Positions 171 to 18,961 of a stretch of 42,816 nucleotides of DNA are shown here, piece by piece. The stretch lies in the IMG/VR virus record IMGVR_UViG_3300045988_147588, positions 1-42,816 of that record. One strand, written 5' to 3'. The notes beneath the pieces are model-generated. The model had not been told where the DNA came from. It was given only the letters and a program-made list of their open reading frames with translations, and ran no database searches. The position numbers and the translations under genes are program-made. Source of the DNA: a virus. Each line of letters starts with the position of its first letter. Within the stretch, counting starts at the first letter, position 1.

Positions 171-190
171 AGAAAGTGAGAAATAAAAAC

Positions 191-499
191 ATGAAAAAAC
201 TTAAAGCATTATTACTTGCAACATTAGCAGCTGCTAACATTTACACGCTTATTAATAGCGATAAGCAGCAAGAACAACCAACAAACGAAAAGCATTTATT
301 ATCAATTGAACATTTCGAATATGATTATTATCAATCATATTTGCATGGATCAGTACCAGTTGATCATGACACATTTATAGCTATAAAAGTAGCTTACACA
401 ATAACAGAAGATGAAAGCTATATCTATTTATTAGATAGTTTAAATAATCAAGAATATGTAATAGCTCAAATGATTATTGATATAAATAACGGGCAGTGA
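191..499 (+). CDS. Small secreted or membrane-anchored protein (102 aa)
   Basis: ORF track 176..499. ATG at 191 gives MKKLKALLLATLAAANIY, a hydrophobic N-terminal signal/anchor. Lies downstream of the promoter at 114-142. Confidence 0.6.
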   Translation: MKKLKALLLATLAAANIYTLINSDKQQEQPTNEKHLLSIEHFEYDYYQSYLHGSVPVDHDTFIAIKVAYTITEDESYIYLLDSLNNQEYVIAQMIIDINNGQ

Positions 500-529
500 G
501 TGAAAAAATTAAAAAATATAAAAAAAGCA

Positions 530-581
530 TTGACATGTCACCACGTGGTGATAATATATAAGTGTAATCACCAAGTGGTGA
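530..581 (+). promoter_or_regulatory. Sigma70-like promoter with a second, different palindromic operator pair
   Basis: TTGACA 530-535, TAATAT 552-557. Perfect palindrome TCACCACGTGGTGA at 538-551 and near-copy TCACCAAGTGGTGA at 568-581. Confidence 0.6.
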
Positions 582-601
582 CAACTAGAAAGGAGGAAAA
601 A

Positions 602-754
602 ATGACCAACAAAGAAATAGAAATGTTGAAGCGCTGCATTTTAGCAAATTTAAAAGTATTAAAAATACTTTTAGAAAATGAAAAGCTCAATAATCAGGCA
701 ATCATAGCATTAATTAACTCAATGATTAAAGAGCTTGAATTAAGTAGCTTATAG
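602..754 (+). CDS. Hypothetical 50-aa helical protein
   Basis: ATG at 602 preceded by AGGAGG (591-596). The 500..601 part of the track ORF contains the promoter/operators, so it is not coding. Terminator follows. Confidence 0.6.
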   Translation: MTNKEIEMLKRCILANLKVLKILLENEKLNNQAIIALINSMIKELELSSL

Positions 755-761
755 CAGCTAC

Positions 762-790
762 AGGGCGGAACGCCTCCGCCCTTCAATTTT
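762..790 (+). terminator. Rho-independent terminator
   Basis: Stem AGGGCGGA (762-769) / TCCGCCCT (775-782) followed by TCAATTTT. Confidence 0.7.
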
Positions 791-833
791 AGCATAAAAA
801 TAACATGATAAAAAAATAAAAGGAGAAAAAAAC

Positions 834-1208
834 ATGACTTACAATTACAGATTAGAAGAAAAAAACGACATTTACAATTATATTACAGAAAATTATGAAG
901 ATATTAAAAGTGAACTAGAAGATCGTGATTCATTTTATGAAACATTATATGACAATTTATTTAATGAAGATTCAGTAACAGGAAATGCTAGCGGCTCATA
1001 TACTTTTAACCGTTACAAATCACGCGAGTATGTTTTAGGAAATGAAGATCTATTAAGAGAAGCATATACAGAATTTTGCTGTATGGATTCACTCGGCAAT
1101 GATTTTATAGAAGAAAATTACGAAAAAATGGATGTGACTATTCGCTGTTATTTATTGGGTGAATGTTTAAGCGATGTTTTAGACGACCTAGAAAGCGAAA
1201 TTGAATAA
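834..1208 (+). CDS. Strongly acidic 124-aa protein (anti-restriction / DNA-mimic candidate)
   Basis: ATG preceded by AAAGGAG. About 32 D/E versus about 11 K/R counted by eye. Early-arm position. Confidence 0.7.
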   Translation: MTYNYRLEEKNDIYNYITENYEDIKSELEDRDSFYETLYDNLFNEDSVTGNASGSYTFNRYKSREYVLGNEDLLREAYTEFCCMDSLGNDFIEENYEKMDVTIRCYLLGECLSDVLDDLESEIE

Positions 1209-1209
1209 T

Positions 1210-1389
1210 ATGATGAAAAGATATATTTCAGTTAGTAAAAATACGCAATGTTATGTATTTTCAACAGTAATAAATAATCGCTGTTATGAACAATGTTATT
1301 TCGGCTACACCATGCAAGAAATGCGGCGGATGTTCCGCGAACATTGCGGACTTATTGGCGATAAAAATGTTAGATTCATTTCACGATAA
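1210..1389 (+). CDS. Hypothetical 59-aa protein
   Basis: In-frame ATG ATG at 1210/1213 within track ORF 1201..1389. Abuts the stop of the upstream gene. Confidence 0.5.
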   Translation: MMKRYISVSKNTQCYVFSTVINNRCYEQCYFGYTMQEMRRMFREHCGLIGDKNVRFISR

Positions 1390-1479
1390 TATAAAAAGAC
1401 GCCCTGAAAGAGTCGTTGAAAATTACGACGAAACCGTCGCAGCTGCGGCGGTCGGCGTTATGCCATGGAGGTTTTTGTT

Positions 1480-1809
1480 ATGCTTGTACCTGAATTGATT
1501 AAAATAAAACCTATTGAAGCATTTAAAAATAGATCTTTAAGGACAGAATATAACAGCCAATGCGATAATGCTTTAAAATTCTGGACAGATTACATTTTTA
1601 ATAATGTCGAAAACGGAATAGAAATTGAAGATAAAAATATAATGATTATTTCTAAGGGAATAAATAACCCTGGTTATATTAGAATCTCAATTTTCAATCA
1701 TGAAAGAGATTATTTTTTGTATGCAGTAATGCATAAAGAATATAAGCCAACTGAAATGAAACGGCTTTTCAATGACTATTTATTAAAAATAAGCATTTCG
1801 AAATCCTAG
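1480..1809 (+). CDS. Hypothetical 109-aa protein
   Basis: GGAGG at 1467-1471, then ATG at 1480 (MLVPELIKIK...). The stop lies inside two-block element copy A. Confidence 0.7.
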   Translation: MLVPELIKIKPIEAFKNRSLRTEYNSQCDNALKFWTDYIFNNVENGIEIEDKNIMIISKGINNPGYIRISIFNHERDYFLYAVMHKEYKPTEMKRLFNDYLLKISISKS

Positions 1810-1831
1810 AAAACAATTTGCGGAGGTATAG
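1800..1831 (+). repeat. Two-block element copy A (GAAATCCTAG-N14-AGGTATAG)
   Basis: Block 1 at 1800-1809 overlaps the stop codon of 1480..1809. Block 2 at 1824-1831 overlaps the SD of the next ORF. Confidence 0.85.
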
Positions 1832-1833
1832 AT

Positions 1834-2010
1834 ATGTATAAATATGGAATGCGATTAAGAGGTTTCGGTTGTGGATCACAGCCAAACGGCTTTGTTAAGT
1901 GGGAGGATTGTGACAAAAACATAACTGGATATTGGAGTTATGTTTGGTACGATTTCAAGCTTGATAACAACGATTTATTCACTTATAGCATGGATTTACT
2001 AAGCGATTAG
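1834..2010 (+). CDS. Hypothetical 58-aa protein (below the ORF-track cutoff)
   Basis: Hand translation: MYKYGMRLRGFGCGSQPNGFVKWEDCDKNITGYWSYVWYDFKLDNNDLFTYSMDLLSD. GGAGG at 1822-1826 upstream of the ATG at 1834. Confidence 0.6.
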   Translation: MYKYGMRLRGFGCGSQPNGFVKWEDCDKNITGYWSYVWYDFKLDNNDLFTYSMDLLSD

Positions 2011-2041
2011 AAATCCTACGTTTAAAAATTTGGAGGTATAT
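2010..2041 (+). repeat. Two-block element copy B (GAAATCCTAC-N14-AGGTATAT)
   Basis: Block 1 at 2010-2019 starts on the last base of the preceding stop codon. Block 2 at 2034-2041 overlaps the SD. Confidence 0.9.
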
Positions 2042-2563
2042 ATGAAAATCAGCAAAACATTTAGTGGAAGTAACGAATTATATTTGCAGAAATTAACTAG
2101 ACAACAACGCTCTAGCTTGATTGAGAGCGCTGTATCTGACAACATTTACATGCGCGAAATGATACAAAAGCAAATTGAAAACGAAAATGCATACCTTAAA
2201 AGTGTTCATCAACCATCTATGTGGTATGCAATTAGATCTCAGTTGCATGATATGGTGAAAACTTATAGCGATATAGGAAGCGTATTGATAGGGAATGAGC
2301 ATTTTTCTACAACTTTTCATAACGGATATGGTGATGGCACAACTAGAACAGGATACATTGATGCCAACAATTCTGTATTGAGATTCATGAAGTTCGAAAC
2401 AACGTTCCAGGTGAACGGTGATAGCTGCTTTATTTACAGCTACGACTGTTTAAACGGTGAAGATTTAAAAGATAAATCCTACATTGCTGGAACTATTCCA
2501 TGTGGTAAATACGATGTATACCACTATGAAGGTATCATTGCATTAGTTAAACAAGCAAAATGA
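2042..2563 (+). CDS. Hypothetical 173-aa protein
   Basis: ATG at 2042 (MKISKTF...), 5 nt after GGAGG at 2032-2036. Track ORF 2030..2563. Confidence 0.75.
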   Translation: MKISKTFSGSNELYLQKLTRQQRSSLIESAVSDNIYMREMIQKQIENENAYLKSVHQPSMWYAIRSQLHDMVKTYSDIGSVLIGNEHFSTTFHNGYGDGTTRTGYIDANNSVLRFMKFETTFQVNGDSCFIYSYDCLNGEDLKDKSYIAGTIPCGKYDVYHYEGIIALVKQAK

Positions 2564-3675: not shown

Positions 3676-4002
3676 TCAAATCCTACAACATAACATTTCA
3701 CGGCTTGTCTTAATCCAAGCCAAATTTTGATACATGTATTCAATACCTTTTATCGTAATAGAATAAGTTACCATTTTCATATATTCTATCCTATCTGCAA
3801 AAAACTTTGTTTCACCCTCGAAGATATAACCGTTTGATATTAGATTATCAATAATAGTATTCCAATAGTTATCATTTATAATTGGAAACAATGAGCCATC
3901 ATTCTGTATTTCATTACAATATCCAGGTCTTCCGTCTCTCAACATTTCATATAAGTAATTCAATATTTTATATACGACCACACAATAATCATTTTTCGCC
4001 AT
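3676..4002 (-). CDS. YjcQ-like winged-helix protein (108 aa)
   Basis: AGGAGG 8 nt upstream of the ATG at 4002 (MAKNDYCVVVYKILNYLYE...). Resemblance to the YjcQ family by eye. Confidence 0.55.
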   Translation of the reverse strand: MAKNDYCVVVYKILNYLYEMLRDGRPGYCNEIQNDGSLFPIINDNYWNTIIDNLISNGYIFEGETKFFADRIEYMKMVTYSITIKGIEYMYQNLAWIKTSREMLCCRI

Positions 4003-5293: not shown

Positions 5294-6163
5294 TTATTTC
5301 TCAAAATCAGTAAATATACTAGTTTGTCCAAACCTATCAATACCATTAATTCTATTTGTTGCTATTTTCTGGTATTCTTCATTGATTTCAAATCCTATAA
5401 AATTTCTTCCTGTTTCTTTGCAAGCAACACAAGTTGTTCCACTTCCGCAAAATGCATCCAATACAATATCGTTTGGTTGCGTAGCATGAAGTATATGCTT
5501 TTCAACGAAATCCAACGGCTTAATTGTCGGATGTATGTATTTCTTTTTATCTTCAGTATTGGTAGAAGAAATATAATATGAGCGTTTTAAATCCATACCA
5601 TCATTCAATCTTCTTGCTCCTTTTTCTCTGAAGAAAAGACAATATTCTGTATCACTCAACCACGTATTGTTTGTTTTTGGAATCGGATTTGTTTTATGCC
5701 ACGTTAATATATTGAAGTTGCAGTCTTTCTTATTGCAGAAATAATCAATTGTATATGGAATCTGCGCTTTAGATAACCATATATATATGTATATTTCTTT
5801 TTCTACTCTGCAAAATTCATCATATATAGAATAATCAATTCCTGTATCAATACCCACAAGATTCTTTTTTTGCACAAGTCTGTTGCATTCTTGTTTATGC
5901 TTTTCCTTTTCGTATTCGCCAGTTGTTTCTTCATACAATTGTTTTTCTTTTTTAAATGCTATTTCTAAATTGTATTTTCTATTTCTAATTCCAAACGCAC
6001 CACCGTCACCAGCAGAAGCAAATTGATATGGAAGATCAACATAAATTAAATCAATGCTCTTGTCAGGTATATTCTTTATCAGTTCATAAGCATTTCCGCA
6101 TATAACTGTATTTAAATTTTCCTCAATAAAACTGCCCATTTTCTCCTTGAACATAAGAAGCAT
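5294..6163 (-). CDS. Beta-class N6A/N4C DNA methyltransferase (N6_N4_Mtase type)
   Basis: Motif IV-like VDLPY near the N-terminus. HPTIKP...VLDAFCGSGTT (motif I) near the C-terminus. Start may be an internal ATG. Confidence 0.8.
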   Translation of the reverse strand: MLLMFKEKMGSFIEENLNTVICGNAYELIKNIPDKSIDLIYVDLPYQFASAGDGGAFGIRNRKYNLEIAFKKEKQLYEETTGEYEKEKHKQECNRLVQKKNLVGIDTGIDYSIYDEFCRVEKEIYIYIWLSKAQIPYTIDYFCNKKDCNFNILTWHKTNPIPKTNNTWLSDTEYCLFFREKGARRLNDGMDLKRSYYISSTNTEDKKKYIHPTIKPLDFVEKHILHATQPNDIVLDAFCGSGTTCVACKETGRNFIGFEINEEYQKIATNRINGIDRFGQTSIFTDFEK

Positions 6164-6181
6164 ATCTTGTGTTCCATCTTG

Positions 6182-6864
6182 TTAAATCAGATAAGTTTTT
6201 ATAAATCTTCTTGCATAGTCTTTTGAAATCATACTTCTTTGAACTTTTCTTGTTTTTCCATCTTCATCTTTGGCATATGAAATTCTTTTTTTTGGATGAA
6301 TAATCATTGGTTCATCCATAATAATATTTTCTTTAGGTTCAAAGTTAACAAAGAAGTATTGTGTAGATTTTTCATAGTAATCACCATTTTCATGCCTGTT
6401 TTTATCAATAACTTTAGGCTTTATGGCCCAGTACTTAATCAAGTAATGAGTTGATGAATATGGATTTTCTATGACTAAACGAAGCCCCCCCGTAAAGCTA
6501 CAATCGTGAGCATTGTTACAAATTCATACATATCATGCAGTTCCTTATGCATTTTCATATCTAACTGGAGCTTTTCTATATCATCATAATTTTTCATCTG
6601 GAAGGCAGTTCCTCTGAAATGCAGCTGAATTTGTTCTTCAAATCTAATGCAGGGAAAGAAAGCTAAAATCAAATCATCCTTTTTAATACTGTCGAATATT
6701 GAATCACGATAACAGTACGCCTTTTCTATTTCATCAAACAAATCAATCACATAATCTGTTTCACTGAAATCATTAGCAATATCATAATCGTATGCTTCAT
6801 ATCCAAGTTTTCTGAATTCATTTTTGAATGTTCCCGACTGTTCAAACATGCAATGAACTTTCAT
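6182..6864 (-). pseudogene. C5-cytosine-methyltransferase-like gene split by a G7 tract (ORFs 6475..6864 and 6182..6442)
   Basis: CMFEQSGTF (motif I-like) and FFPC (motif IV-like) in the upstream ORF. One extra G joins the ORFs and creates LVIENP (motif VI-like). The downstream ORF has a TTG start and no SD. Confidence 0.6.
6485..6491 (-). repeat. G7 homopolymer (C7 on the + strand) at the frameshift point
   Basis: Read directly. Unusual in this AT-rich genome. Confidence 0.95.
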
Positions 6865-7007
6865 ATTCTCTCCTTTAATCCATGCAACCGATGTATAGTT
6901 ATGTTGCATGGTTCTAATTTCGTAAAATCCAAGATAACCGTTTATTTATGCGGTTATCCTAGATTGTGCTTTTTTCTTGTGCAACATAATTTGATTTGTT
7001 GCAACGC
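6865..7007 (-). promoter_or_regulatory. Leader/regulatory module copy A (TGCAACA palindromes + terminator hairpin)
   Basis: Hairpins at 6980-7003 (TGCAACA/TGTTGCA), 6933-6958 (GATAACCG/CGGTTATC + T-run on the minus strand) and 6880-6911 (CATGCAAC/GTTGCATG). Homologous module at 11320-11465. Confidence 0.6.
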
Positions 7008-7179: not shown

Positions 7180-7515
7180 TTAAATATCACCTTCAGCACG
7201 ATGTAATGAGCGTTCTGATTCAAATCCTTCTGGATATCTTGCTTTCAATTTATTGATGTTTGTCTGCATTACATCATCCATATCAAGGCCAAGTGCTTCA
7301 CATGCTTCAGTAATCATCCAGAGACAATCACCAAGTTCTTTCTTGATATGCTCTTTGTCAAATTCATGTCCCTGATATACCTTCTGAAGAATTCCTGCAA
7401 CTTCACCAGCTTCTGAAGTAAGTCCAAATACTGCATGATGTAATCTTCCTTTCTTGTCATCGTATGGAATGCTGCATGTTCTCATTGCGTATGTTTGATA
7501 TTCGTTTCCTGTCAT
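7180..7515 (-). CDS. MazG-like nucleotide pyrophosphohydrolase (111 aa)
   Basis: LTSEAGEVAGILQK...ELGDCLWMI...INKLKARY, typical of phage MazG. GGAGG upstream of the ATG at 7515. Confidence 0.8.
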   Translation of the reverse strand: MTGNEYQTYAMRTCSIPYDDKKGRLHHAVFGLTSEAGEVAGILQKVYQGHEFDKEHIKKELGDCLWMITEACEALGLDMDDVMQTNINKLKARYPEGFESERSLHRAEGDI

Positions 7516-7910
7516 ATTCCTAATTCCTCCAAAGTATATTTTTCCCATGCTTTCATATTTTTATACATAGTGTCTTTTTTGAAGCATGGCAAATTAATAG
7601 TGTTATCATTTTTGATTCCAATTCGAATATTATCAGTGCCAATAGAAGCTTTTTGAATATATAAAACTTTGTCTCTAAACGGTCCAATCACTGAACTTAA
7701 ATATTTTCTTTCAACTTTATCAAGTATCTGTTCTTTATATTCTGACTTAAGCCATTTTCGCTTTTCATCCTGGCAATTTTTGCTTTTATTAAATATACAT
7801 TCATCGCAATCTATAAAACCGCATTCACATATATATCCTCTTTCAGATATAGCAACCCATTTAACCAGTATATTTTCAATTCCGTCTTTATATTTCTCTA
7901 TATTAAGCAT
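7512..7910 (-). CDS. Paralog family 'EKYKD...Cys-cluster...WL.SEYKE...YTLEELG' member 1
   Basis: Clear similarity to 9845..10267 and 10270..10689 along the full length. Confidence 0.75.
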   Translation of the reverse strand: MLNIEKYKDGIENILVKWVAISERGYICECGFIDCDECIFNKSKNCQDEKRKWLKSEYKEQILDKVERKYLSSVIGPFRDKVLYIQKASIGTDNIRIGIKNDNTINLPCFKKDTMYKNMKAWEKYTLEELGI

Positions 7911-9500: not shown

Positions 9501-9848
9501 TCACTCGTTTATCTTTTCAAAGATATAGTCAACAGAGTTCTTGATTACATCTTCTGCTTTCTGAATGTTATTATCTGTAATCTGTGAAGCAATCATCATT
9601 TTGTAACATGTTTCTTTGCTCGGAATGAATGGAATAACGATAAAAAGCAAAATAGAAAAGAAAATCACTATCTTTCTTGTTCTTCTGGCAGATTTCAGTT
9701 CTTTTTCCTTATATTCCAAATCATTGATTCTAAAAGTAAGAAAAATAATAACAGTTACAAGTGCAGACACCACAAGAATACACATTATTTGTAATTTCGC
9801 AAGGCAGTCAGCAAGATAGAACAGCCACGGATTGATTATTGGTGTCAT
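9501..9848 (-). CDS. Membrane protein (115 aa, two hydrophobic segments)
   Basis: ORF track. Hydrophobic stretches WLFYLADCLAKLQIMCILVVSALVTVIIFL and IVIFFSILLFIVIPFI. Confidence 0.6.
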   Translation of the reverse strand: MTPIINPWLFYLADCLAKLQIMCILVVSALVTVIIFLTFRINDLEYKEKELKSARRTRKIVIFFSILLFIVIPFIPSKETCYKMMIASQITDNNIQKAEDVIKNSVDYIFEKINE

Positions 9849-10267
9849 AGTCCTAACTCCTCAAGAGTGTATTCTCTGCCAAGTTCCATATTTTGAAACA
9901 TTCCAGTTGATTTTTTAAATGGTGGTAAAATTGTCGTGCATCCCCATGATTGAGAATCCTGTGAGTATAATGATATTTTTTCCATGCCATTTGCTACAGC
10001 TTCTAATTTTTTTATACACCTAACAAACCTTCTAAAAGGTTTAATCACTGCACTAAGATATTCTCTTTCTTCATCTGTCAAAACAGATTCTTTACATTCT
10101 GAATTTAGCCAATCCCTTGCATTATCAACACAATTACCACCGTGAAATATACATTTATAACAGCCTCCCATATCTTTACATCGGCACATCTCTCCGCTTT
10201 TAGATACCCCAATTGTGTAAGAAAATATTTCTTCAATTTTATCTTTGTATTTTTCTTTGTTTAACAT
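9845..10267 (-). CDS. EKYKD paralog family member 2
   Basis: MLNKEKYKDKIEEI...WLNSECKES...YLSAVIKPFR...EYTLEELGL. Confidence 0.75.
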   Translation of the reverse strand: MLNKEKYKDKIEEIFSYTIGVSKSGEMCRCKDMGGCYKCIFHGGNCVDNARDWLNSECKESVLTDEEREYLSAVIKPFRRFVRCIKKLEAVANGMEKISLYSQDSQSWGCTTILPPFKKSTGMFQNMELGREYTLEELGL

Positions 10268-10269
10268 AT

Positions 10270-10689
10270 CTATATTCCTAATTCCTCAAGTGTATATTCT
10301 TTTCCAAGCTCCATACCTTTATACATGGTATTTCCATCAAATCTTGGCAAGCATGCATCAGCTGGTCCTTCAATAACCATATAGATATATTCTTCTGTGC
10401 AACGAGTATCTGCAAACTTTGTTATGCTTTTAACTTTGTCTCTAAAAGGTTTAACAACTGAACTAAGATATTCTTTTTCTTGTTTTGTTAAAATCGACTC
10501 TTTATATTCGGAGTTAAGCCATTCTTTAGCGGCTTCAAAACTCCCACATTTATTATTTATAAAAAATATGCATTTATCACAAGGGCGATCGCCGCATCGT
10601 GTAATCGCTTCCTCGTAATCTTGATAAACTGCAATTGTTTTAACTAATATATCTTCAAGTTTATCTTTGTATTTCTCTTTTTTAAGCAT
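10270..10689 (-). CDS. EKYKD paralog family member 3
   Basis: ATG at 10689 (MLKKEKYKDKLEDI...) after GGGAGAA. Ends in EYTLEELGI. Confidence 0.75.
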   Translation of the reverse strand: MLKKEKYKDKLEDILVKTIAVYQDYEEAITRCGDRPCDKCIFFINNKCGSFEAAKEWLNSEYKESILTKQEKEYLSSVVKPFRDKVKSITKFADTRCTEEYIYMVIEGPADACLPRFDGNTMYKGMELGKEYTLEELGI

Positions 10690-10885
10690 CTTTTCTCCCA
10701 CTAAAATATCCGAGTGAATTTGCCATTACAGTAAATTCACTGAATGACTGTACATCATCCCAGTCATTGTTTTTTGCAATTCTTCTGGAAGCTGCCATGA
10801 TAGGAATCAATTCATTTTCCCATTGTATTAAAACATCACGGTCCTTTTTAGCAGCATTCCATCCGCTTTTAAATTTATAATTCAT
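10682..10885 (-). CDS. Hypothetical protein (67 aa)
   Basis: ORF track. Overlaps the next start. Confidence 0.5.
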   Translation of the reverse strand: MNYKFKSGWNAAKKDRDVLIQWENELIPIMAASRRIAKNNDWDDVQSFSEFTVMANSLGYFSGRKDA

Positions 10886-11055: not shown

Positions 11056-11319
11056 TCAGTTCCTTCTAAGCAATCGCCTTTCTTTCAGATATTCAAGACA
11101 TGCGAATACATCTAAGTTACCTATAGGGTCTCCAAACTCATCCCATGCTTCAATTAAATCGTTTGAGCTTCCATATGATCCCATATGTTCAATAAATGAA
11201 ATTCTGTATTTATTGGATTTAATAATGATTTGGAATCCATCGAACATTGGTCTGAAAATGTGTTCAATGTGCAAGTCTTTTAGCACTTCATCAAGTTCAA
11301 ATATTGAGTTATATTCCAT
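11056..11319 (-). CDS. Hypothetical protein (87 aa)
   Basis: ATG at 11319 (MEYNSIFELDE...) after AAAGGAAAAAG. Preceded by leader module copy B. Confidence 0.6.
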   Translation of the reverse strand: MEYNSIFELDEVLKDLHIEHIFRPMFDGFQIIIKSNKYRISFIEHMGSYGSSNDLIEAWDEFGDPIGNLDVFACLEYLKERRLLRRN

Positions 11320-11465
11320 ATTCTTTTTCCTTTCTTCCATGCAACCGAATCATAGTTATGTTGCATGGTTCTGTTTCTTTAAATTATTCATATCGCCTTT
11401 ATTTATGCGTATTTCTTCACTTTTATGTTTTTACCGTGCAACATATTTTGACTTGTTGCATTATC
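11320..11465 (-). promoter_or_regulatory. Leader/regulatory module copy B
   Basis: CATGCAAC/GTTGCATG hairpin at 11337-11368. TGCAACA/TGTTGCA hairpin at 11437-11460. Same 69-nt separation as copy A. Central hairpin degenerate. Confidence 0.6.
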
Positions 11466-11508
11466 CTCAATCTAACCATGTATAATTGTTTGGAAGGAGG
11501 TGATATAC

Positions 11509-11697
11509 ATGGAAAATAAAGAAAATGTAATTCGTGATGTTGCAATGATGCTTACTTTTATTGATATTCAAAAAAATCATTCTGATAATTTGCAAACTCA
11601 TAGCAATGCATCAGCTGCATTAAAAAGTTATGCAGAATATCTTAATCTTTGCGAAGAAGAATATGATTCTTTTATTCAGCAAAGAGATCAAAAATAG
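11509..11697 (+). CDS. Small + strand protein (62 aa), paralog of 14832..15092
   Basis: GGAGG 8 nt upstream of the ATG at 11509. ENKENVIRDVAMMLTF aligns with SKNEVIQQVAMIMTI. TATAAT at 11481-11486. Confidence 0.65.
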   Translation: MENKENVIRDVAMMLTFIDIQKNHSDNLQTHSNASAALKSYAEYLNLCEEEYDSFIQQRDQK

Positions 11698-11902
11698 CAG
11701 TATGTTCATTTGAATATGTTTTTGAATATCTTACATATGCACGTAACGCTTCAACAACATGTTCACTCTCGGAAATAGTAAGTTTTTCTTGGCAGAGAAA
11801 ATTTACTATTTTCTTTTGCACGGAAACCAATTTTTCTCCTCTTTCATCTTTGCTTAAGTTTGTAAAATAAGTTTCAAATTCAATTTTTCCTACATTTGCC
11901 AT
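11672..11902 (-). CDS. Small protein (76 aa), paralog of 15067..15294
   Basis: KKIVNFLCQEKLTISESEHVVEAL aligns with KKIVNLLIEGKFTIDESKTTLKLV. Its 3' end overlaps the convergent + gene by 26 nt. Confidence 0.65.
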   Translation of the reverse strand: MANVGKIEFETYFTNLSKDERGEKLVSVQKKIVNFLCQEKLTISESEHVVEALRAYVRYSKTYSNEHTAIFDLFAE

Positions 11903-11905
11903 ATG

Positions 11906-12085
11906 CTACTCCTTTTCATCTAACAATGAACCGATAGTTGATTTTTTAATTGCTTTGAATTTTAACAAATACAATTTACTGTTTAATGCTTCGACTATGG
12001 CACGAAATTCAACCACTGTTATATTTTCATTTTCGCAACGTTTTATGATCTCGCTTATAATTTCATCAATCAAATTTTTACGCAT
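11906..12085 (-). CDS. Hypothetical 59-aa protein
   Basis: Hand translation: MRKNLIDEIISEIIKRCENENITVVEFRAIVEALNSKLYLLKFKAIKKSTIGSLLDEKE. Confidence 0.45.
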   Translation of the reverse strand: MRKNLIDEIISEIIKRCENENITVVEFRAIVEALNSKLYLLKFKAIKKSTIGSLLDEKE

Positions 12086-12099
12086 TTTCTTATTTCTCC

Positions 12100-12306
12100 T
12101 TATAAAAAGAACGTTTTGATGCTCATTGTATTTCTTATAGCTTTCTTTTGAAGTTCTAACATTTCATGCCCTTCAAAAGTAAAATTGATACCATTTTTTA
12201 ATAGCAAATATCCCAATGCACCAACCATAGAAAAGTAATTTATTTTTCTTTGCCAATTAATATACAAAAGACATGAGAGAACTATGATAATAATATTTTT
12301 AATCAT
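12100..12306 (-). CDS. Small membrane protein (68 aa)
   Basis: ORF track. Hydrophobic N-terminus IIIIVLSCLLYI. Confidence 0.5.
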   Translation of the reverse strand: MIKNIIIIVLSCLLYINWQRKINYFSMVGALGYLLLKNGINFTFEGHEMLELQKKAIRNTMSIKTFFL

Positions 12307-12503
12307 TATTGCTGCTCCTTCAGGCTATGCCACCATCTGTCTATTTCATCTCTGGCGGTCATTAACCCATCAGCACATCCGTGCAAATAAGCACGTTTGC
12401 CATCATTATTGGATTCAATTTCCAATTTACTGTTAACATTCTTTGCAACAAACAAAATGTGTTGCAACATCACAATATCGTCATCCGTTACTATCTTTTT
12501 CAT
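12306..12503 (-). CDS. Hypothetical protein (65 aa)
   Basis: ORF track. Start and stop overlap the neighbours. Confidence 0.5.
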   Translation of the reverse strand: MKKIVTDDDIVMLQHILFVAKNVNSKLEIESNNDGKRAYLHGCADGLMTARDEIDRWWHSLKEQQ

Positions 12504-13345
12504 TCTTCCTCCTCAAGTAACTCTTTAAGACCGCCAAAATCATCTCTGAGCTTCTGTTTTCTGTGGTCTGCGCCTTTAACTTCAACTGGATAACACATTT
12601 CCATCAGTCTACTGTAAATGCGCTGTTTAGCCACTTCTGTGGGGTTCTTTAGCTCTTCTGATGTTAGATTGGTTGTAACTATAATTGGCTTTTTAGAACG
12701 GTATCTAGAGTCGATAACGTTCATCACCATTTCGTTCATATATTCTGTGTTTCTTTCACTTGCCAGATCGTCAATAACAAGCAGTTCATACTTGCATAGA
12801 TAATCTATGTAGTCCTGTTTGTTTACGCCTGGTGTTGATAGAACATTTACAATTCTTGCAAATGTTGTAACCATGCACGAATAGCCTTTATCCAAGAGAG
12901 CATTGGCTATACAGCTCGCATAAAATGTTTTTCCTGTTCCTACTGATCCAAAGAGCAATAACCCCTTTGACCTCTTTTGCATTTCAGGAAATATATCTGC
13001 ATATTTTCTACTGATTTTACTTAGTTTTGTATTCAGCAAATCATCGTTTGAAAATACACATTCTTTAAGACTTGGATCATTGAATGCTGCTCTACGCATT
13101 TCATAAATTTTCATCTTTCGTTGTTCTTCAGCATAGTGACGCTCACTTGCATCTCTAGCTTCTTCTTCGCACTTACAAAGACAGCGAACAACAACTGTCT
13201 TGTTGTCAAACTTTAGAACCGTTTCTTTGGGAGTTTGACATTTGCCACATATGAGCAATCCCTCTTTATTTCTGAAATCTTCTGTGTTTGTTTCTAAACT
13301 TCTTGCACTATCGCATATCACGTTTAGTAAGTTTTCGGTATTCAT
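12500..13345 (-). CDS. DnaC/IstB-like AAA+ helicase loader with N-terminal Cys cluster
   Basis: Walker A GSVGTGKTF, Walker B LLVIDDL. CGKCQ...CLCKC at the N-terminus. Confidence 0.85.
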   Translation of the reverse strand: MNTENLLNVICDSARSLETNTEDFRNKEGLLICGKCQTPKETVLKFDNKTVVVRCLCKCEEEARDASERHYAEEQRKMKIYEMRRAAFNDPSLKECVFSNDDLLNTKLSKISRKYADIFPEMQKRSKGLLLFGSVGTGKTFYASCIANALLDKGYSCMVTTFARIVNVLSTPGVNKQDYIDYLCKYELLVIDDLASERNTEYMNEMVMNVIDSRYRSKKPIIVTTNLTSEELKNPTEVAKQRIYSRLMEMCYPVEVKGADHRKQKLRDDFGGLKELLEEEE

Positions 13346-13354
13346 TTACACCTC

Positions 13355-14098
13355 TCAAAATATTTCATCGAGCGTACTATCACGCTCTTGCTCATTGACT
13401 ATCTGATGATTGTTTCGAAGCCAGTTCCTTACTGTAGCTTTCCAATCTTTCATCGGACTCTTGCCAACAAGCCATCCTTTTGCTTCGTAATAGTCATAGA
13501 ATCTCGCTACGTCTAACGATTTACCAAGACTTTTTACGTATTCAGCAATTTCTTGCTGAGTTGGTTTCACAAATTTTTTTTGTTTTTTCTTAACAACTAC
13601 GTCAGTAGTTGTTTCTTTTTTTATATCTATATCTTTCTCTAACTCTATCTCTGGTGTAGAAATCTTGTTAGAAACCTCGTTAGATATATTGTTAGAAATC
13701 ATGTTAGAAATCTTACGCTTTTCTTCTGAAATTCTTTTTTGATAATTTCTTTGTCTATCTGCTTCTGAGCTAGACTGACCTATAAAGTTTTGGATGTCTA
13801 ACATATAAATTGCTCCAGTATCAAGAACATCAATTAGTCCTAAATCTTTAAATATTTTTAATGCCTTTTCTACATCTCCAACTGAATGTCTTGTTATTGT
13901 GGCAATCATTTGTGCATTGTATGGAATGCGGTCATTGAACATCAATTTTCCGTTTCCCTGTAAACTCATTAGATATAATTTCAACAAAATATTTGAATAC
14001 TTATATCCATCTTGGATAGACTCAAGTATTTTCATTTCATTTGTATCGAAAAAATTTTCCTTAAGTCTCATATAGTAATATTTTTTATTGTCACTCAT
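13355..14098 (-). CDS. Phage replisome organizer / DnaD-domain protein
   Basis: MSDNKKYYYMRLKENFF N-terminus. C-terminal YYEAKGWLVGKSPMKDWKATVRNWLRN is a DnaD-like motif. Alternative start at 14113. Confidence 0.8.
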   Translation of the reverse strand: MSDNKKYYYMRLKENFFDTNEMKILESIQDGYKYSNILLKLYLMSLQGNGKLMFNDRIPYNAQMIATITRHSVGDVEKALKIFKDLGLIDVLDTGAIYMLDIQNFIGQSSSEADRQRNYQKRISEEKRKISNMISNNISNEVSNKISTPEIELEKDIDIKKETTTDVVVKKKQKKFVKPTQQEIAEYVKSLGKSLDVARFYDYYEAKGWLVGKSPMKDWKATVRNWLRNNHQIVNEQERDSTLDEIF

Positions 14099-14103
14099 AC
14101 AAA

Positions 14104-14778
14104 TCACTCCCATTTAGTACCATAGTTTATTTTTTCTCTCTCTTTCTGGACATCACCATATTCCAGACAGATATAAGCCATAGTCACTATAGGGCTTTCA
14201 TGCATTAGCAATCTTTGTGTTTGAAGAAGATCATGTGTCTCATCGTAATACCACCTTCCAAATGACTTTCTCATTGAGTGGCAACCGATTTGATACTTAA
14301 CACCAGCTTCTTTTGCTAATGCTTTAATCTGTCTCCATGCGGTAACACGATTTATAGGAAAGTTATTTTCCTTACTGCTTGGAAACAAGTACTGACTTTG
14401 AGTAATGCCTAGCCACTTAATGTAGTCATTAATAGGCTGCATTACCTCTTTGGACATCGAATACTGCATACGTTTACCTGTCTTATGTTCAGTAAACGTA
14501 ACTTCACCATCACTGATATCTCTAGGTGTTAGTTCTATCAGCGTTGTGATTCTTAGTCCTGTATTTACGCCTAAATGCATTAGTATCTTCAAGCGATACC
14601 ATCTGAAATATTCTTCAGATGTTTCTTCAAGTGATTCCATTCTCACTCTTAAAATTCTTTGCATTTCTTCGTAATCTTCTTTCTTGAACGGTTTAACAAC
14701 TTCTCGACCGTGCTTATCGAGTGTCTTCCGTTCGTATTTCGAACCCTTTGGATTAAATCTCTTTAATTGTCTAGGCAT
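14104..14778 (-). CDS. Short tyrosine recombinase (224 aa, catalytic domain only)
   Basis: GLRITT (Arg), HSMRKSF (HxxR), LMHES...MAYI (His/Tyr). Overlaps the DnaD-like gene start region. Confidence 0.75.
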   Translation of the reverse strand: MPRQLKRFNPKGSKYERKTLDKHGREVVKPFKKEDYEEMQRILRVRMESLEETSEEYFRWYRLKILMHLGVNTGLRITTLIELTPRDISDGEVTFTEHKTGKRMQYSMSKEVMQPINDYIKWLGITQSQYLFPSSKENNFPINRVTAWRQIKALAKEAGVKYQIGCHSMRKSFGRWYYDETHDLLQTQRLLMHESPIVTMAYICLEYGDVQKEREKINYGTKWE

Positions 14779-14831
14779 TCTCTCCTTTCTTCCTCCTATT
14801 CGTTATAATGTTCTACAGAAAGGAGGATATT

Positions 14832-15092
14832 ATGTCTAAAAATGAAGTCATTCAGCAAGTCGCAATGATTATGACTATTCCGGAATACGCAAAGCTTCTT
14901 GAAGACTATAAGAGCGAACCAAGTTATCAAAAAACTTTACCATCCGAAAGAAAAGACAATCTTGTAAAAGATGCATTGCAAGCATATGAAGAAAATTACA
15001 TTGCAGTATGTAGAAATTTTGATACATATATAAATGCATACACTGACCAAGATTTTTACGACCTAGCTATTCTTGAAAAGAATCAAGAGTAA
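14832..15092 (+). CDS. Small + strand protein (86 aa), paralog of 11509..11697
   Basis: AGGAGG upstream of the ATG at 14832. TATAAT at 14804-14809. Confidence 0.65.
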   Translation: MSKNEVIQQVAMIMTIPEYAKLLEDYKSEPSYQKTLPSERKDNLVKDALQAYEENYIAVCRNFDTYINAYTDQDFYDLAILEKNQE

Positions 15093-15294
15093 TTTCATTG
15101 CATTTTCTGTCTATGTAATCAGAAACAAGTTTTAAAGTTGTTTTTGATTCATCAATAGTGAATTTTCCCTCTATGAGAAGATTCACTATTTTTTTACGCA
15201 TTAATACTTCTCTTTTAAATTTTTCTTTTTCATCTTTCGTACCTATAAGGCTAAGTACCTTTGCTTGATCTCTTTCCGAATCTTCAAAAAACAT
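15067..15294 (-). CDS. Small protein (75 aa), paralog of 11672..11902
   Basis: ATG at 15294 after AAGGA. Same 26-nt 3' overlap with its convergent partner as in the other copy. Confidence 0.65.
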   Translation of the reverse strand: MFFEDSERDQAKVLSLIGTKDEKEKFKREVLMRKKIVNLLIEGKFTIDESKTTLKLVSDYIDRKCNEITLDSFQE

Positions 15295-15539
15295 ATTTTT
15301 TTCCTTTCTTTTCACCTAGATTAATCAAATAATTAATTCTCTCTTTTCTATATGTTTTCGAAAAGATAAGAAGTAATGTATCAGCTATAAACCATATAAG
15401 TAACAACCTTTCCATTCATATTTACCTTTCTAAGTGATTAGCAACTGCTGCATGGCGATTCAATAGTCCAAAAGGAATCCTTTCTTTAACAAGAACCACG
15501 CAGCAGCGTTATCACTTCTTTTGAGAATCAGCACGACTG

Positions 15540-15868: not shown

Positions 15869-16057
15869 TTTTATTTCCTTTCTTCCCTCAAGCGTTCATA
15901 GGCTCTATCAACAGTTTTTTATATGCAAGATTACCATCACGTTTTTAAAGCTTTATTTTTTTATTCGAAAGGAGACGTTGATAGAGCGTATCAACACTCA
16001 AGGGATTATATGAATGAGGATATAAAAAACCTCATTGAATTTCTCAAAGAGGTTGCG

Positions 16058-16172
16058 TTGAAAATGTATACCTAAAAATAGTATAATTTTAATGCACTCT
16101 TTGAGTGTTTTATGAGGCGTTCGAGCTTAGTCGCCAAACTTACGTCGAGCGTCTCATCCTATTTTGCTTTGT
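16058..16172 (+). ncRNA. Candidate short antisense RNA unit (promoter + hairpin terminator)
   Basis: TTGAAA 16058-16063, 18-nt spacer, TATAAT 16082-16087. Imperfect hairpin at 16112-16157 followed by a T-rich run overlapping the 3' end of the minus gene 16159..16350. Confidence 0.3.
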
Positions 16173-16714: not shown

Positions 16715-16737
16715 TGACGTTCCTCCTTTTTTAAAAA

Positions 16738-17060
16738 GTGAATTTAATTCAGCTAATCTTGTAAAAAAATATTTTCTATATCTTTTACCGTTAATTTTAA
16801 TGTCTTTTTCAAACCGACAATTTCAGATGCAGTAAAATCGCCCATCCCATTTAGCCTGTTATAAAGCGTTTCTCGCTTAATATTTGAGCGTTTTGCAATA
16901 ACAGTCATAGGAATTCCGCTTTCTTTAATTATTGTTTTTAATTTTTCTAATTTGACCATCTTTTCCTTTCTAGTGAATTTAATTCAACTTGCATAATTAT
17001 CTTATCTAAGAAGTGAATTATTGTCAACACTATAAATAGAAATGTTGAATTATTTTACAC
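16738..17060. promoter_or_regulatory. Genetic-switch operators
   Basis: Identical 15-mer AGTGAATTTAATTCA at 16738-16752 and 16972-16986 (TGAATT-N-AATTCA symmetry). Related AGTGAATTATTGTCAAC at 17012-17028 and GTTGAATTATTTTACAC at 17044-17060. Confidence 0.6.
16753..16959 (-). CDS. Cro-like HTH regulator (68 aa)
   Basis: Divergent from the CI-like gene. HTH IPMTVIAKRSNIKRETLYNRLNG. Confidence 0.65.
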   Translation of the reverse strand: MVKLEKLKTIIKESGIPMTVIAKRSNIKRETLYNRLNGMGDFTASEIVGLKKTLKLTVKDIENIFLQD

Positions 17061-17095
17061 AAACAGTTATTCTATCAGTGAAAGGACATGTTAAT

Positions 17096-17518
17096 ATGTT
17101 AAAATTATACGAAAATATTAAAAAATATCGTTTGCAATTGAGAATGAGCCAAAAAGAATTAGCAAAAAGGACTGGCTACACCGACAGAAGTATGATCACA
17201 AAAATTGAAAAAGGTCATGTAGACCTACCATTATCTAAAATAATTTTATTTGCTGATGTGTTGCAGACAACTCCTATTGAATTGATGGAACTATCTGATG
17301 ATGACTTAATGGAAGAAAGTACAATATATCATTCCAAGAATTCATTTACTCCAGATGATGTAAGAATGTTGGAAGTATATCATAAATCTTCACCAGAAAC
17401 ACAACAAATAATTAGATTGCTCTTGGCAAAAGAACAGGGTATTCCTGCTATAGCCGAGCAAGAACGCCCTATTGCCGATAATACGGATAATGAATCATCA
17501 CGCATTAAGGATAAATAA
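17096..17518 (+). CDS. CI-like XRE-family repressor (140 aa)
   Basis: ATG at 17096 after AAAGGA. HTH MSQKELAKRTGYTDRSMITKIEKG. Divergent from the Cro-like gene. Confidence 0.8.
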   Translation: MLKLYENIKKYRLQLRMSQKELAKRTGYTDRSMITKIEKGHVDLPLSKIILFADVLQTTPIELMELSDDDLMEESTIYHSKNSFTPDDVRMLEVYHKSSPETQQIIRLLLAKEQGIPAIAEQERPIADNTDNESSRIKDK

Positions 17519-17800: not shown

Positions 17801-18961
17801 ATGATAGATAATTCAGGAATATATGAGAGAAAGTCCAAAGCAGGTATTTCATTACAAATTATCCTTAGATATGGAAAAGGAAAAGATAGAAAATCGTTTA
17901 CCAAAACGATTAAAGTATCAGATTATCCAGATAAGAAAAGCGCATATGTTGTAGCTAGAATGATTAGAGATAAAGCACGTATTGATATTAGTGCTGGTAA
18001 AGCATTAGATAATACTGTGCCTAATGTTAAATGGTTCTTTGAAAAAGAATTAGAGTTATCTGGACTTTCAATTAAAACAAAAGCCAAACATAGAGTGTTA
18101 TACAAATACTCTATTGCACAATTTGAGGATGTTCCATTAAATAAAATTAAGACATCTGACATTCAACAATCAATTGTTGAATTTGCTGAAAATCATTCAA
18201 ATGACAGCATTCAAAGATTGGTTTCTGTATGGAGAGCTATTTACCATGCTGCATTAATGTTAGAGTATGAAATTACTGATAAGACTATAGCATTAAAGAA
18301 TGTTAAGTCTAAAATTGTTTCTATTCCAAGAAGCACAGCAACTGATGTAGAAACATTCAATCTGTTTTGTGATGAATTATTAAAATATAATTCAAAAGAT
18401 GGCGTGCCATGCAAGAGATCTCAAGACATTTGGTATATGCTGCAAATAATGAGATGGACAGGTTGTCGCACAGCAGAAGTGCTGGCACTTAACTGGAATG
18501 ATTTCAACGCAGAAAACAAAACGCTATATATCAATAAAAGTGTTGGTTCAACAGGAACAGAAACAAGAAAAATAATCACTACTAAAACTGTTGAATCAAT
18601 ACGCTATGTACCATGCACAGACGAACTAATAGTCATTTTAAATAGTCTTAGAGATTATTCTAGTTCTTCACCTATGATTATTGAGCAGGATGGAAAACCG
18701 TATGAAATAAACGATGTAAGTAACCATATAATGTTAGTATCAAAGAAATGTGGGATTAAGTTTAACGCTTATATGTTGAGACATTTATTCTCTACTACAC
18801 TATACCGTGAAGGTGTTAATCAAGCTGTTATCCGTGACTTGATGGGACATACTTCTTCCAGTATGACATTAGGCTATGCTAATACATCAGAAGAAGATAG
18901 GAAGAAAGCAATCAATAAAATAAAAGCCGAGGAGAAACAAGAAAATGAAGAAAACAACTAA
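17801..18961 (+). CDS. int: Tyrosine integrase (386 aa)
   Basis: GCRTAEVLAL (Arg), MLRHLFST (HxxR-type), LMGHTSSSMTLGYA (His...Tyr). Full N-terminal arm/core-binding region present. Confidence 0.9.
   Translation: MIDNSGIYERKSKAGISLQIILRYGKGKDRKSFTKTIKVSDYPDKKSAYVVARMIRDKARIDISAGKALDNTVPNVKWFFEKELELSGLSIKTKAKHRVLYKYSIAQFEDVPLNKIKTSDIQQSIVEFAENHSNDSIQRLVSVWRAIYHAALMLEYEITDKTIALKNVKSKIVSIPRSTATDVETFNLFCDELLKYNSKDGVPCKRSQDIWYMLQIMRWTGCRTAEVLALNWNDFNAENKTLYINKSVGSTGTETRKIITTKTVESIRYVPCTDELIVILNSLRDYSSSSPMIIEQDGKPYEINDVSNHIMLVSKKCGIKFNAYMLRHLFSTTLYREGVNQAVIRDLMGHTSSSMTLGYANTSEEDRKKAINKIKAEEKQENEENN

Follow-up and report, generated by a model that had tools for sequence, protein, structure and literature searches.

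In phage lambda, the antisense RNA OOP faces cII at the gene's 3' end, just upstream of O and P, and the sar RNA of P22 is comparable. Convergent transcripts that overlap at their 3' ends are also known from type I toxin-antitoxin systems, such as txpA/RatA and bsrG/SR4 of Bacillus subtilis prophages. Here we compare these systems, and the accessory-gene arrangements of prophages, with two convergent gene pairs in IMG/VR virus record IMGVR_UViG_3300045988_147588 (positions 1 to 42,816; this whole stretch of 42,816 nucleotides (nt) is called the window below). Among those arrangements, morons are accessory genes of prophages that carry transcription signals of their own, for example gene 15 of HK97 (PMC3594210, PMC7067206), and P2-like phages and P4-like satellites have variable cargo hotspots that carry antiviral systems (PMC9122126). 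Our comparison suggests that the two pairs occupy moron-like slots for exchangeable genes, which lie to the left and right of the replication module of a temperate phage.

Exchangeable genes on either side of the replication module

The window (42.8 kb) comprises the whole genome of a temperate phage of siphovirus type. Its integrase (17801-18961) and cI-like repressor (17042-17518) are both encoded on the plus strand, and the long early operon of the minus strand begins with a cro-like gene (16959-16753) and extends to approximately position 4000. Pair 1 consists of a plus-strand open reading frame (ORF) of 62 amino acids (aa; 11509-11697, with its ATG at 11509 and its stop at 11697) that meets a 76-aa minus-strand early gene (11902-11672) in a 26-nt overlap (11672-11697), and pair 2 of an 86-aa plus-strand ORF (14832-15092, ATG at 14832, stop at 15092) and a 75-aa minus-strand early gene (15294-15067; 82 aa if it starts instead at a GTG at 15315), which again overlap by 26 nt (15067-15092). 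These coordinates and overlaps, set out in an earlier note made from the sequence, were confirmed, as was its statement that the pairs bracket the recombinase, organizer and loader genes of the replication module (12500-14778, minus strand); four small genes (three besides the 76-aa gene of pair 1) lie between the pairs as well. The plus ORFs indeed share the strand of cI and int, and they are the sole plus-strand genes of the early operon, no other being called between cro and position ~4000 in the window or in its relatives.

Comparison of the window with approximately 30 closely related contigs from human-gut metagenomes (Hadza, Nepali and other cohorts; individual contigs carry the prefix L) shows two slots, read here as expression slots, that are part of the phage backbone, use the lysogeny strand, stand on either side of the replication module and hold exchangeable cargo. 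At slot 1, eight aligned loci are near-identical up to GGAAGGAGGT and unrelated directly after it, and homology to relatives with other cargo stops at 11501-11516; L015, which has an 11-nt deletion in the slot 1 promoter, departs earlier, at 11464. The -10-like box TATAAT (11481-11486, plus strand) is part of the backbone and is kept in all relatives whatever the cargo, and the Shine-Dalgarno (SD) sequence GGAAGGAGG (11492-11500, plus strand), 8 nt before the ATG, is the last backbone element before the cargo diverges. The right edge of the cassette is the stop codon of the 76-aa gene. Cargo at slot 1 is the 62-aa gene, a 65-aa gene unrelated to it, a DUF2513 gene together with a minus-strand transmembrane protein, a 157-aa transmembrane protein (a 137-aa call in L106 is a shorter call of the same type) or a zinc-ribbon ORF without canonical start.

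At slot 2, the TATAAT box (14804-14809, plus strand) is likewise backbone, lies 26 nt from the recombinase start codon and is kept in L022, and the SD AAGGAGG (14820-14826, plus strand) lies 5 nt before the ATG, such that in both slots of the window GGAGG stands 5-8 nt and TATAAT 22-23 nt upstream of the start codon. The cargo is either the 86/75-aa pair or, in L022, a DUF2321 gene with a zinc-ribbon partner after the same TATAAT and SD; the window and L022 cease to be homologous at 14838, and both genes of the pair are replaced together (window 14839-15414). The mosaic breakpoints thus fall at 11501-11516, at 11667-11671 or 12084-12092, at 14838 and at 15415. Pfam matches among the cargo are limited to DUF2513, DUF2321 and zinc ribbons.

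We consider it probable that these are moron-like accessory-gene slots which, in this phage, hold one anciently duplicated orphan pair, and this is the best reading of the locus. The phage backbone would provide two fixed slots on the cI/int strand, one per side of the replication module and each with TATAAT and a strong GGAGG, and the ORF after the SD would be exchangeable cargo, sister phages carrying unrelated genes at the same place. In the window, both slots would contain copies, diverged to ~30% identity, of a single small protein that is acidic and all-helical, each copy tail to tail with a small early protein whose family has three copies, and the most economical history would be that the convergent pair was duplicated once, as a whole and long ago. 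The plus and minus ORFs would overlap because no spacer or terminator separates the convergent genes: in pair 1, the plus ORF would leave the cassette into the antisense of the minus gene's last codons and end at the first in-frame stop, and pair 2 would retain the homologous geometry, with an overlap length that drifts through mutation of one stop codon or the other. The plus genes would be transcribed from promoters of their own during repression of the early operon and so be prophage-expressed accessory genes, and on induction transcription from the rightward promoter might collide with them and silence them. Such an arrangement is phage mosaicism and not a new kind of system, and it involves no new mechanism.

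Like morons, the slots contain genes that differ among otherwise collinear relatives, by addition or replacement (PMC3594210), and they come with a promoter-like box and ribosome-binding site of their own in a placement that would allow expression under a repressed operon. They differ from morons in that neither a terminator nor a deviant GC content marks the genes (PMC3594210), in that the promoter and SD sit in the conserved backbone instead of travelling with the cargo, and in that the genes run antisense within the early operon, overlapping an early gene at its 3' end. With the hotspots of P2-like phages and P4-like satellites, the slots share fixed positions between backbone genes and alternative, unrelated cargo, of which slot 1 has at least six types and slot 2 at least two; they differ in that no cargo is a known defence system, that most cargo is a single tiny ORF and that the phages belong to a Bacillota lineage. 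They thus work like a moron or hotspot slot (PMC3594210, PMC9122126) without being textbook morons.

Several observations weigh against this reading. The earlier note had credited both plus genes with strong SDs and TATAAT boxes, which holds for the ribosome-binding sites and for the presence of the box; however, neither slot has a good -35 box, and a consensus scan called neither promoter. The nearest candidate at slot 1, TTGACT at 11448-11453, lies 27 nt upstream of TATAAT and is too far for a normal -35, and in L015 the 11-nt deletion brings the two into a TTGACT-16-TATAAT arrangement. No terminator follows 11697 or 15092, where only AT-rich hairpins occur in or near the overlaps, and the GC content of the plus genes (27.5% and 32.2%) does not deviate from that of the early region (32.3% +/- 3.9% in 200-nt windows). 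A search for known defence systems among ten cargo and partner proteins returned sub-threshold PADLOC noise only. For the 62-aa ORF, the ratio of nonsynonymous to synonymous substitution rates (dN/dS) is 0.46-0.57 and one off-frame value is similar, which is weak evidence of purifying selection. In addition, the plus family is always found with an adjacent gene of the minus family, so that a functional link is possible, and the activity of the plus genes in the lysogen is something that we infer from their strand and signals only.

If the moron-like reading holds, this uncultured Erysipelotrichaceae phage group offers a clean example in which the backbone supplies the promoter and ribosome-binding site of the slots, cargo ORFs are exchanged with almost codon precision and two such lysogeny-strand slots flank the replication module. 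Slots of this kind may be good places to search for prophage-expressed genes for exclusion, defence or host modulation, and the 62/86-aa family, DUF2513, DUF2321, the 157-aa membrane protein and the zinc-ribbon ORFs form a short set of candidates. Full-text literature searches for DUF2513 and DUF2321 were uninformative.

Three further observations concern the cargo sites. The zinc-ribbon ORF at slot 1 of L007 (6880-7064 of that contig; CPSC...CPFC) follows the conserved SD, has no ATG, GTG or TTG start and was missed by the gene callers; it either uses a non-canonical ATT or ATC start or is a decaying gene. Slot 2, which is divergent from a tyrosine recombinase gene, was also considered as an integron-like site and rejected as such: no repeat or inverted repeat of att type flanks the cargo, and the likeness is geometric only. 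Beside int, the relatives L007, L009, L010 and L106 carry MazE/PemK, SocA_Panacea and Abi_2 genes, and a further cluster of plus-strand genes, which includes DUF6290, lies at the far end of the early operon (window 176-2563); because of these accessory genes, the two slots are not the sole sites of lysogeny-strand cargo in this phage group.

The two protein families and the 3' overlap

Both the plus proteins and the minus proteins had been proposed to be paralogs. For the minus proteins of pairs 1 and 2 the relationship is solid, with a BLASTP E of 2e-6 and a Smith-Waterman z of 7.6 against shuffles; the two are ~30% identical and their C-termini are in register (IFDLFAE-stop and TLDSFQE-stop). 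According to a 33-member profile, the window contains exactly three ORFs of this family, namely both partners and a 59-aa minus-strand early gene (11906-12085; hidden Markov model (HMM) E 1.2e-23), for which a plus partner was never seen. Paralogy of the plus proteins is real but remote. It was missed by BLASTP, and was found by a shuffle test (p = 0.009), by hhalign (P = 8e-4 over 52 columns) and by reciprocal best HMM matches; a MAFFT alignment has three colinear blocks. HMMs built from a single subfamily retrieve the other subfamily as best non-self match among 631 six-frame window ORFs (E 0.043 and 0.0072), and E improves to 0.001 once the divergent 81-aa relative from L105 is added. The plus copies are 30-33% identical and the minus copies ~30%, a similar divergence that fits duplication of the pair as a unit. 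The 65-aa plus protein of L010 and L022 was tried as a third member of the plus family and rejected, as it has no detectable relationship. The proposal that the pairs serve as module-boundary homology for recombination was rejected too because, at ~30% protein and ~41% in-register DNA identity, the copies are too diverged for homologous exchange.

Searches for function placed neither family. Scanned against Pfam, PHROGs, NCBIfam and PADLOC, the four proteins stayed below threshold throughout; a tblastn search of 50,697 cultured phage records was likewise empty, and neither family matched sequence profiles of the PDB. When 1.84 billion representatives were scanned in full with the plus profile (HMMER), only the family's own two 50%-identity clusters and one spurious match were recovered. 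Both families thus appear to be orphans by these searches, and the plus family seems to be restricted to this phage clade. All four pair proteins are hydrophilic (grand average of hydropathy -0.35 to -0.79) and acidic to neutral; the 62-aa and 86-aa plus proteins are acidic, with isoelectric points of 4.7 and 4.5, respectively. AlphaFold2 models of both families are all-helical and of low confidence (predicted local distance difference test (pLDDT) 61-63), and a Foldseek search of the PDB returned only non-significant coiled-coil and helical-bundle matches, which were disregarded. No signature of a defence, toxin or DNA-binding protein was found in the plus proteins.

An orphan family with two clusters, a low-confidence model (pLDDT 63) and a 62-aa ORF whose dN/dS does not clearly favour its own frame could be taken to mean that one or both plus ORFs arose by chance, antisense to the early operon, in its AT-rich spacers. 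We find this very improbable. Between the window and the L001 allele, the 86-aa ORF has a dN/dS of 0.17 in frame against 0.9-1.1 in the other plus frames, and 14 of its 23 changes fall at third positions. GGAGG stands at ideal spacing before both ATGs, the plus ORFs fill stretches that are otherwise non-coding on the minus strand, and they are each other's best match in the window. They also stay open across alleles at 74-88% identity (the 62-aa ORF in five alleles at 74-79%) and in the 44%-identical homolog, and gene callers report a plus ORF on more than 30 contigs. The plus ORFs are thus most likely real genes, the 62-aa one with less certainty.

The overlap itself had been described as identical in the two pairs. 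It is identical in length but not in sequence, 16 of 26 bases matching in register, and no special significance was borne out. Relatives retain the pairing, including one with a 44%-identical plus protein, but not the overlap length, which is 4, 20, 26, 35 or 59 nt. At pair 2, near-identical relatives have the 26 nt, and the divergent 81/74-aa pair of L105, whose plus C-terminus is unrelated, has 20 nt. The 65/74-aa pair overlaps by 4 nt. Overlaps of 35 and 59 nt in pair-1 alleles arise because the minus stop was lost, and the tail of the minus protein beyond ...FAE is variable among relatives (...FAEQKY, ...FAEQNEENIK and others in these alleles). The 26 nt of pair 1 are antisense to the last codons of the 76-aa gene (IFDLFAE-stop) and are backbone, not cassette; L008, L013 and L015, in which no plus ORF enters these codons, conserve them to the same degree. 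Because the minus proteins end in register and the plus stops sit at the homologous antisense position in both pairs, the equal overlap can be read as inherited geometry. By this comparison, the overlap appears to be incidental and its length unconstrained.

Possible antisense control and possible partnership of the paired genes

Since no terminator follows the plus genes, their transcripts should continue antisense into the early genes, and this might be what selection maintains. Transcription of the plus strand, started against the early operon to the left and right of the replication module, would itself be conserved and would damp leaky expression of early and replication genes in the lysogen, by collision or by pairing of mRNA 3' ends, with the ORFs as passengers; such interference could coexist with the slot model. 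The retention of TATAAT and SD in every relative whatever the cargo, and the overlap of 3' ends in every version of the pair, are consistent with it. As with lambda OOP and P22 sar, a short convergent transcript would run opposite the 3' end of an early gene, and slot 2 lies directly upstream of the replication genes, which is the position of OOP in lambda. Unlike OOP and sar, the slot unit is protein-coding, with an SD and purifying selection, and has no defined terminator. The conserved ribosome-binding site and the purifying selection on the 86-aa ORF argue that the protein matters, a conserved promoter and SD are equally expected of a plain expression slot, and the promoters are weak by consensus. 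An Rfam search at gathering thresholds gave no match, and the overlaps lack significant structure: folding z scores are -1.6 and -2.5 on the plus strand and -1.6 and -0.8 on the minus strand, and the hairpins, among them one of 9 bp in the pair 2 overlap, are weak and AT-rich, none being followed by a clear T run. We therefore regard interference as the conserved function as unlikely.

Alternatively, the two genes of a pair might be functionally coupled, a plus protein made in the lysogen binding or counteracting its early lytic minus partner, in a switch, an exclusion system or a toxin-antitoxin-like module that was duplicated as a unit. We judge this quite improbable. It would account for the finding that, across ~30 loci, the plus family never occurs without an adjacent convergent gene of the minus family, as is true of the 62-aa type in three alleles, of the 86-aa type in two and of the 81-aa homolog (44% identity). 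The joint replacement of both pair-2 genes in L022 and the similar divergence of plus and minus copies point in the same direction. However, since both slots would derive from one duplication, the co-occurrence amounts to approximately a single observation. The 76-aa gene, moreover, persists beside unrelated cargo in L008, L013-L016, L024 and L106, and the third member of the minus family is likewise found without a plus gene. Plus and minus genes also recombine independently: in L001 and L002, an 88%-identical plus allele stands beside a minus gene of 100% identity.

For the same reasons, the toxin-antitoxin-like pair that the earlier note had put forward is disfavoured: the partners are separable, with alleles that recombine independently of each other, both proteins lack a hydrophobic character, and no toxin, antitoxin or defence family matches either of them. 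With type I systems, the pairs share a convergent two-gene unit with overlapping 3' ends in Bacillota prophage DNA, but they consist of hydrophilic, acidic or neutral proteins of 62-86 aa, with neither a membrane toxin nor a non-coding antitoxin. The convergent layout also differs from the co-directional two-gene operon of type II systems, and no Pfam, NCBIfam or PADLOC family connects the proteins to them.

A stronger version of the regulatory idea treats the convergent pair as a self-contained unit, in which the early operon would be gated, to the left and right of the replication module, by a small lysogeny-strand protein, by its antisense transcript or by both, and which would have been duplicated to insulate the replication genes from leaky prophage transcription. 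This is a long shot; if true, it would be a protein-coding, two-copy counterpart of OOP-type control of lambda in a Bacillota phage.

The phage, its host and further elements of the window

Late genes of the phage occupy 42378-19225 on the minus strand. In two of the ~30 related contigs, the phage is integrated beside hpf and a MiaB-like gene, and the nearest genome matches of the latter are metagenome-assembled genomes of Solobacterium/Bulleidia-type Erysipelotrichaceae (70% identity). The host is thus probably an uncultured member of the human-gut Erysipelotrichaceae, an assignment that is read from the closest matches of the MiaB-like gene adjoining the integrated phage. A close cultured phage was not found among INPHARED records, which the organizer gene alone matches (~70%). 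IMG/VR returned no relatives of the 224-aa recombinase or of the minus family, GTDB genomes contained no relatives of the plus family, and metagenomes of the Joint Genome Institute (JGI) contributed one additional locus.

The replication module comprises, on the minus strand, a DnaC-like loader (12500-13345), the replisome organizer (13355-14113) and, at its head, a tyrosine recombinase of 224 aa with only the catalytic domain (14104-14778). The recombinase matches Phage_integrase (E 4e-22), has weak XerD/XerA-like matches and is distinct from the 386-aa integrase; its start codon lies 53 nt from the ATG of slot 2, in divergent orientation. Within the organizer gene, at least five tandem 12-nt iterons (TAGAAATCTTGT-like, 13657-13716) probably represent the phage replication origin. 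The motif AGTGAATTTAATTCA occurs twice exactly (16737-16751 and 16972-16986) and a third time as a variant (~17012-17026), flanking and following the cro-like gene, and these sites are likely cI/Cro operators; the motif is absent near the plus promoter of either slot.

An element of ~145 nt is present in two direct copies (copy A, 6862-7005; copy B, 11319-11462) at ~75-80% identity. Each copy has two inverted repeats of the form TGCAAC-N12-14-GTTGCA, 97 nt apart, and the pairs span 6883-7003 and 11340-11460. The pattern has five matches in the window against 0.05 expected; the fifth site is at 12444-12466, and slot 2 has none. Both copies are intergenic, lie just upstream (in the minus sense) of early genes and sit at mosaic breakpoints. 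Copy B adjoins slot 1, its right repeat overlapping the TTGACT box, and copy A adjoins a window-specific 713-nt insertion (6152-6864) with minus-strand ORFs of 86 and 144 aa, which is missing from L007, L008, L010 and L022. Because the repeat arms are invariant in relatives, they provide no covariation; the element could be a binding site for a regulator or recombinase, or a nut/put-like RNA hairpin.

The early operon also contains three paralogous Cys-rich genes of 132, 140 and 143 aa (7512-7910, 9845-10267 and 10270-10701), two of them in tandem. Finally, a 290-nt gap in the operon (15869-16158), which is conserved in relatives, has a long imperfect inverted repeat (15875-15912 with 15977-16014) and, directed antisense into a ribbon-helix-helix gene, the region's best plus-strand match to a promoter (TTGAAA-18-TATAAT, 16058-16087).

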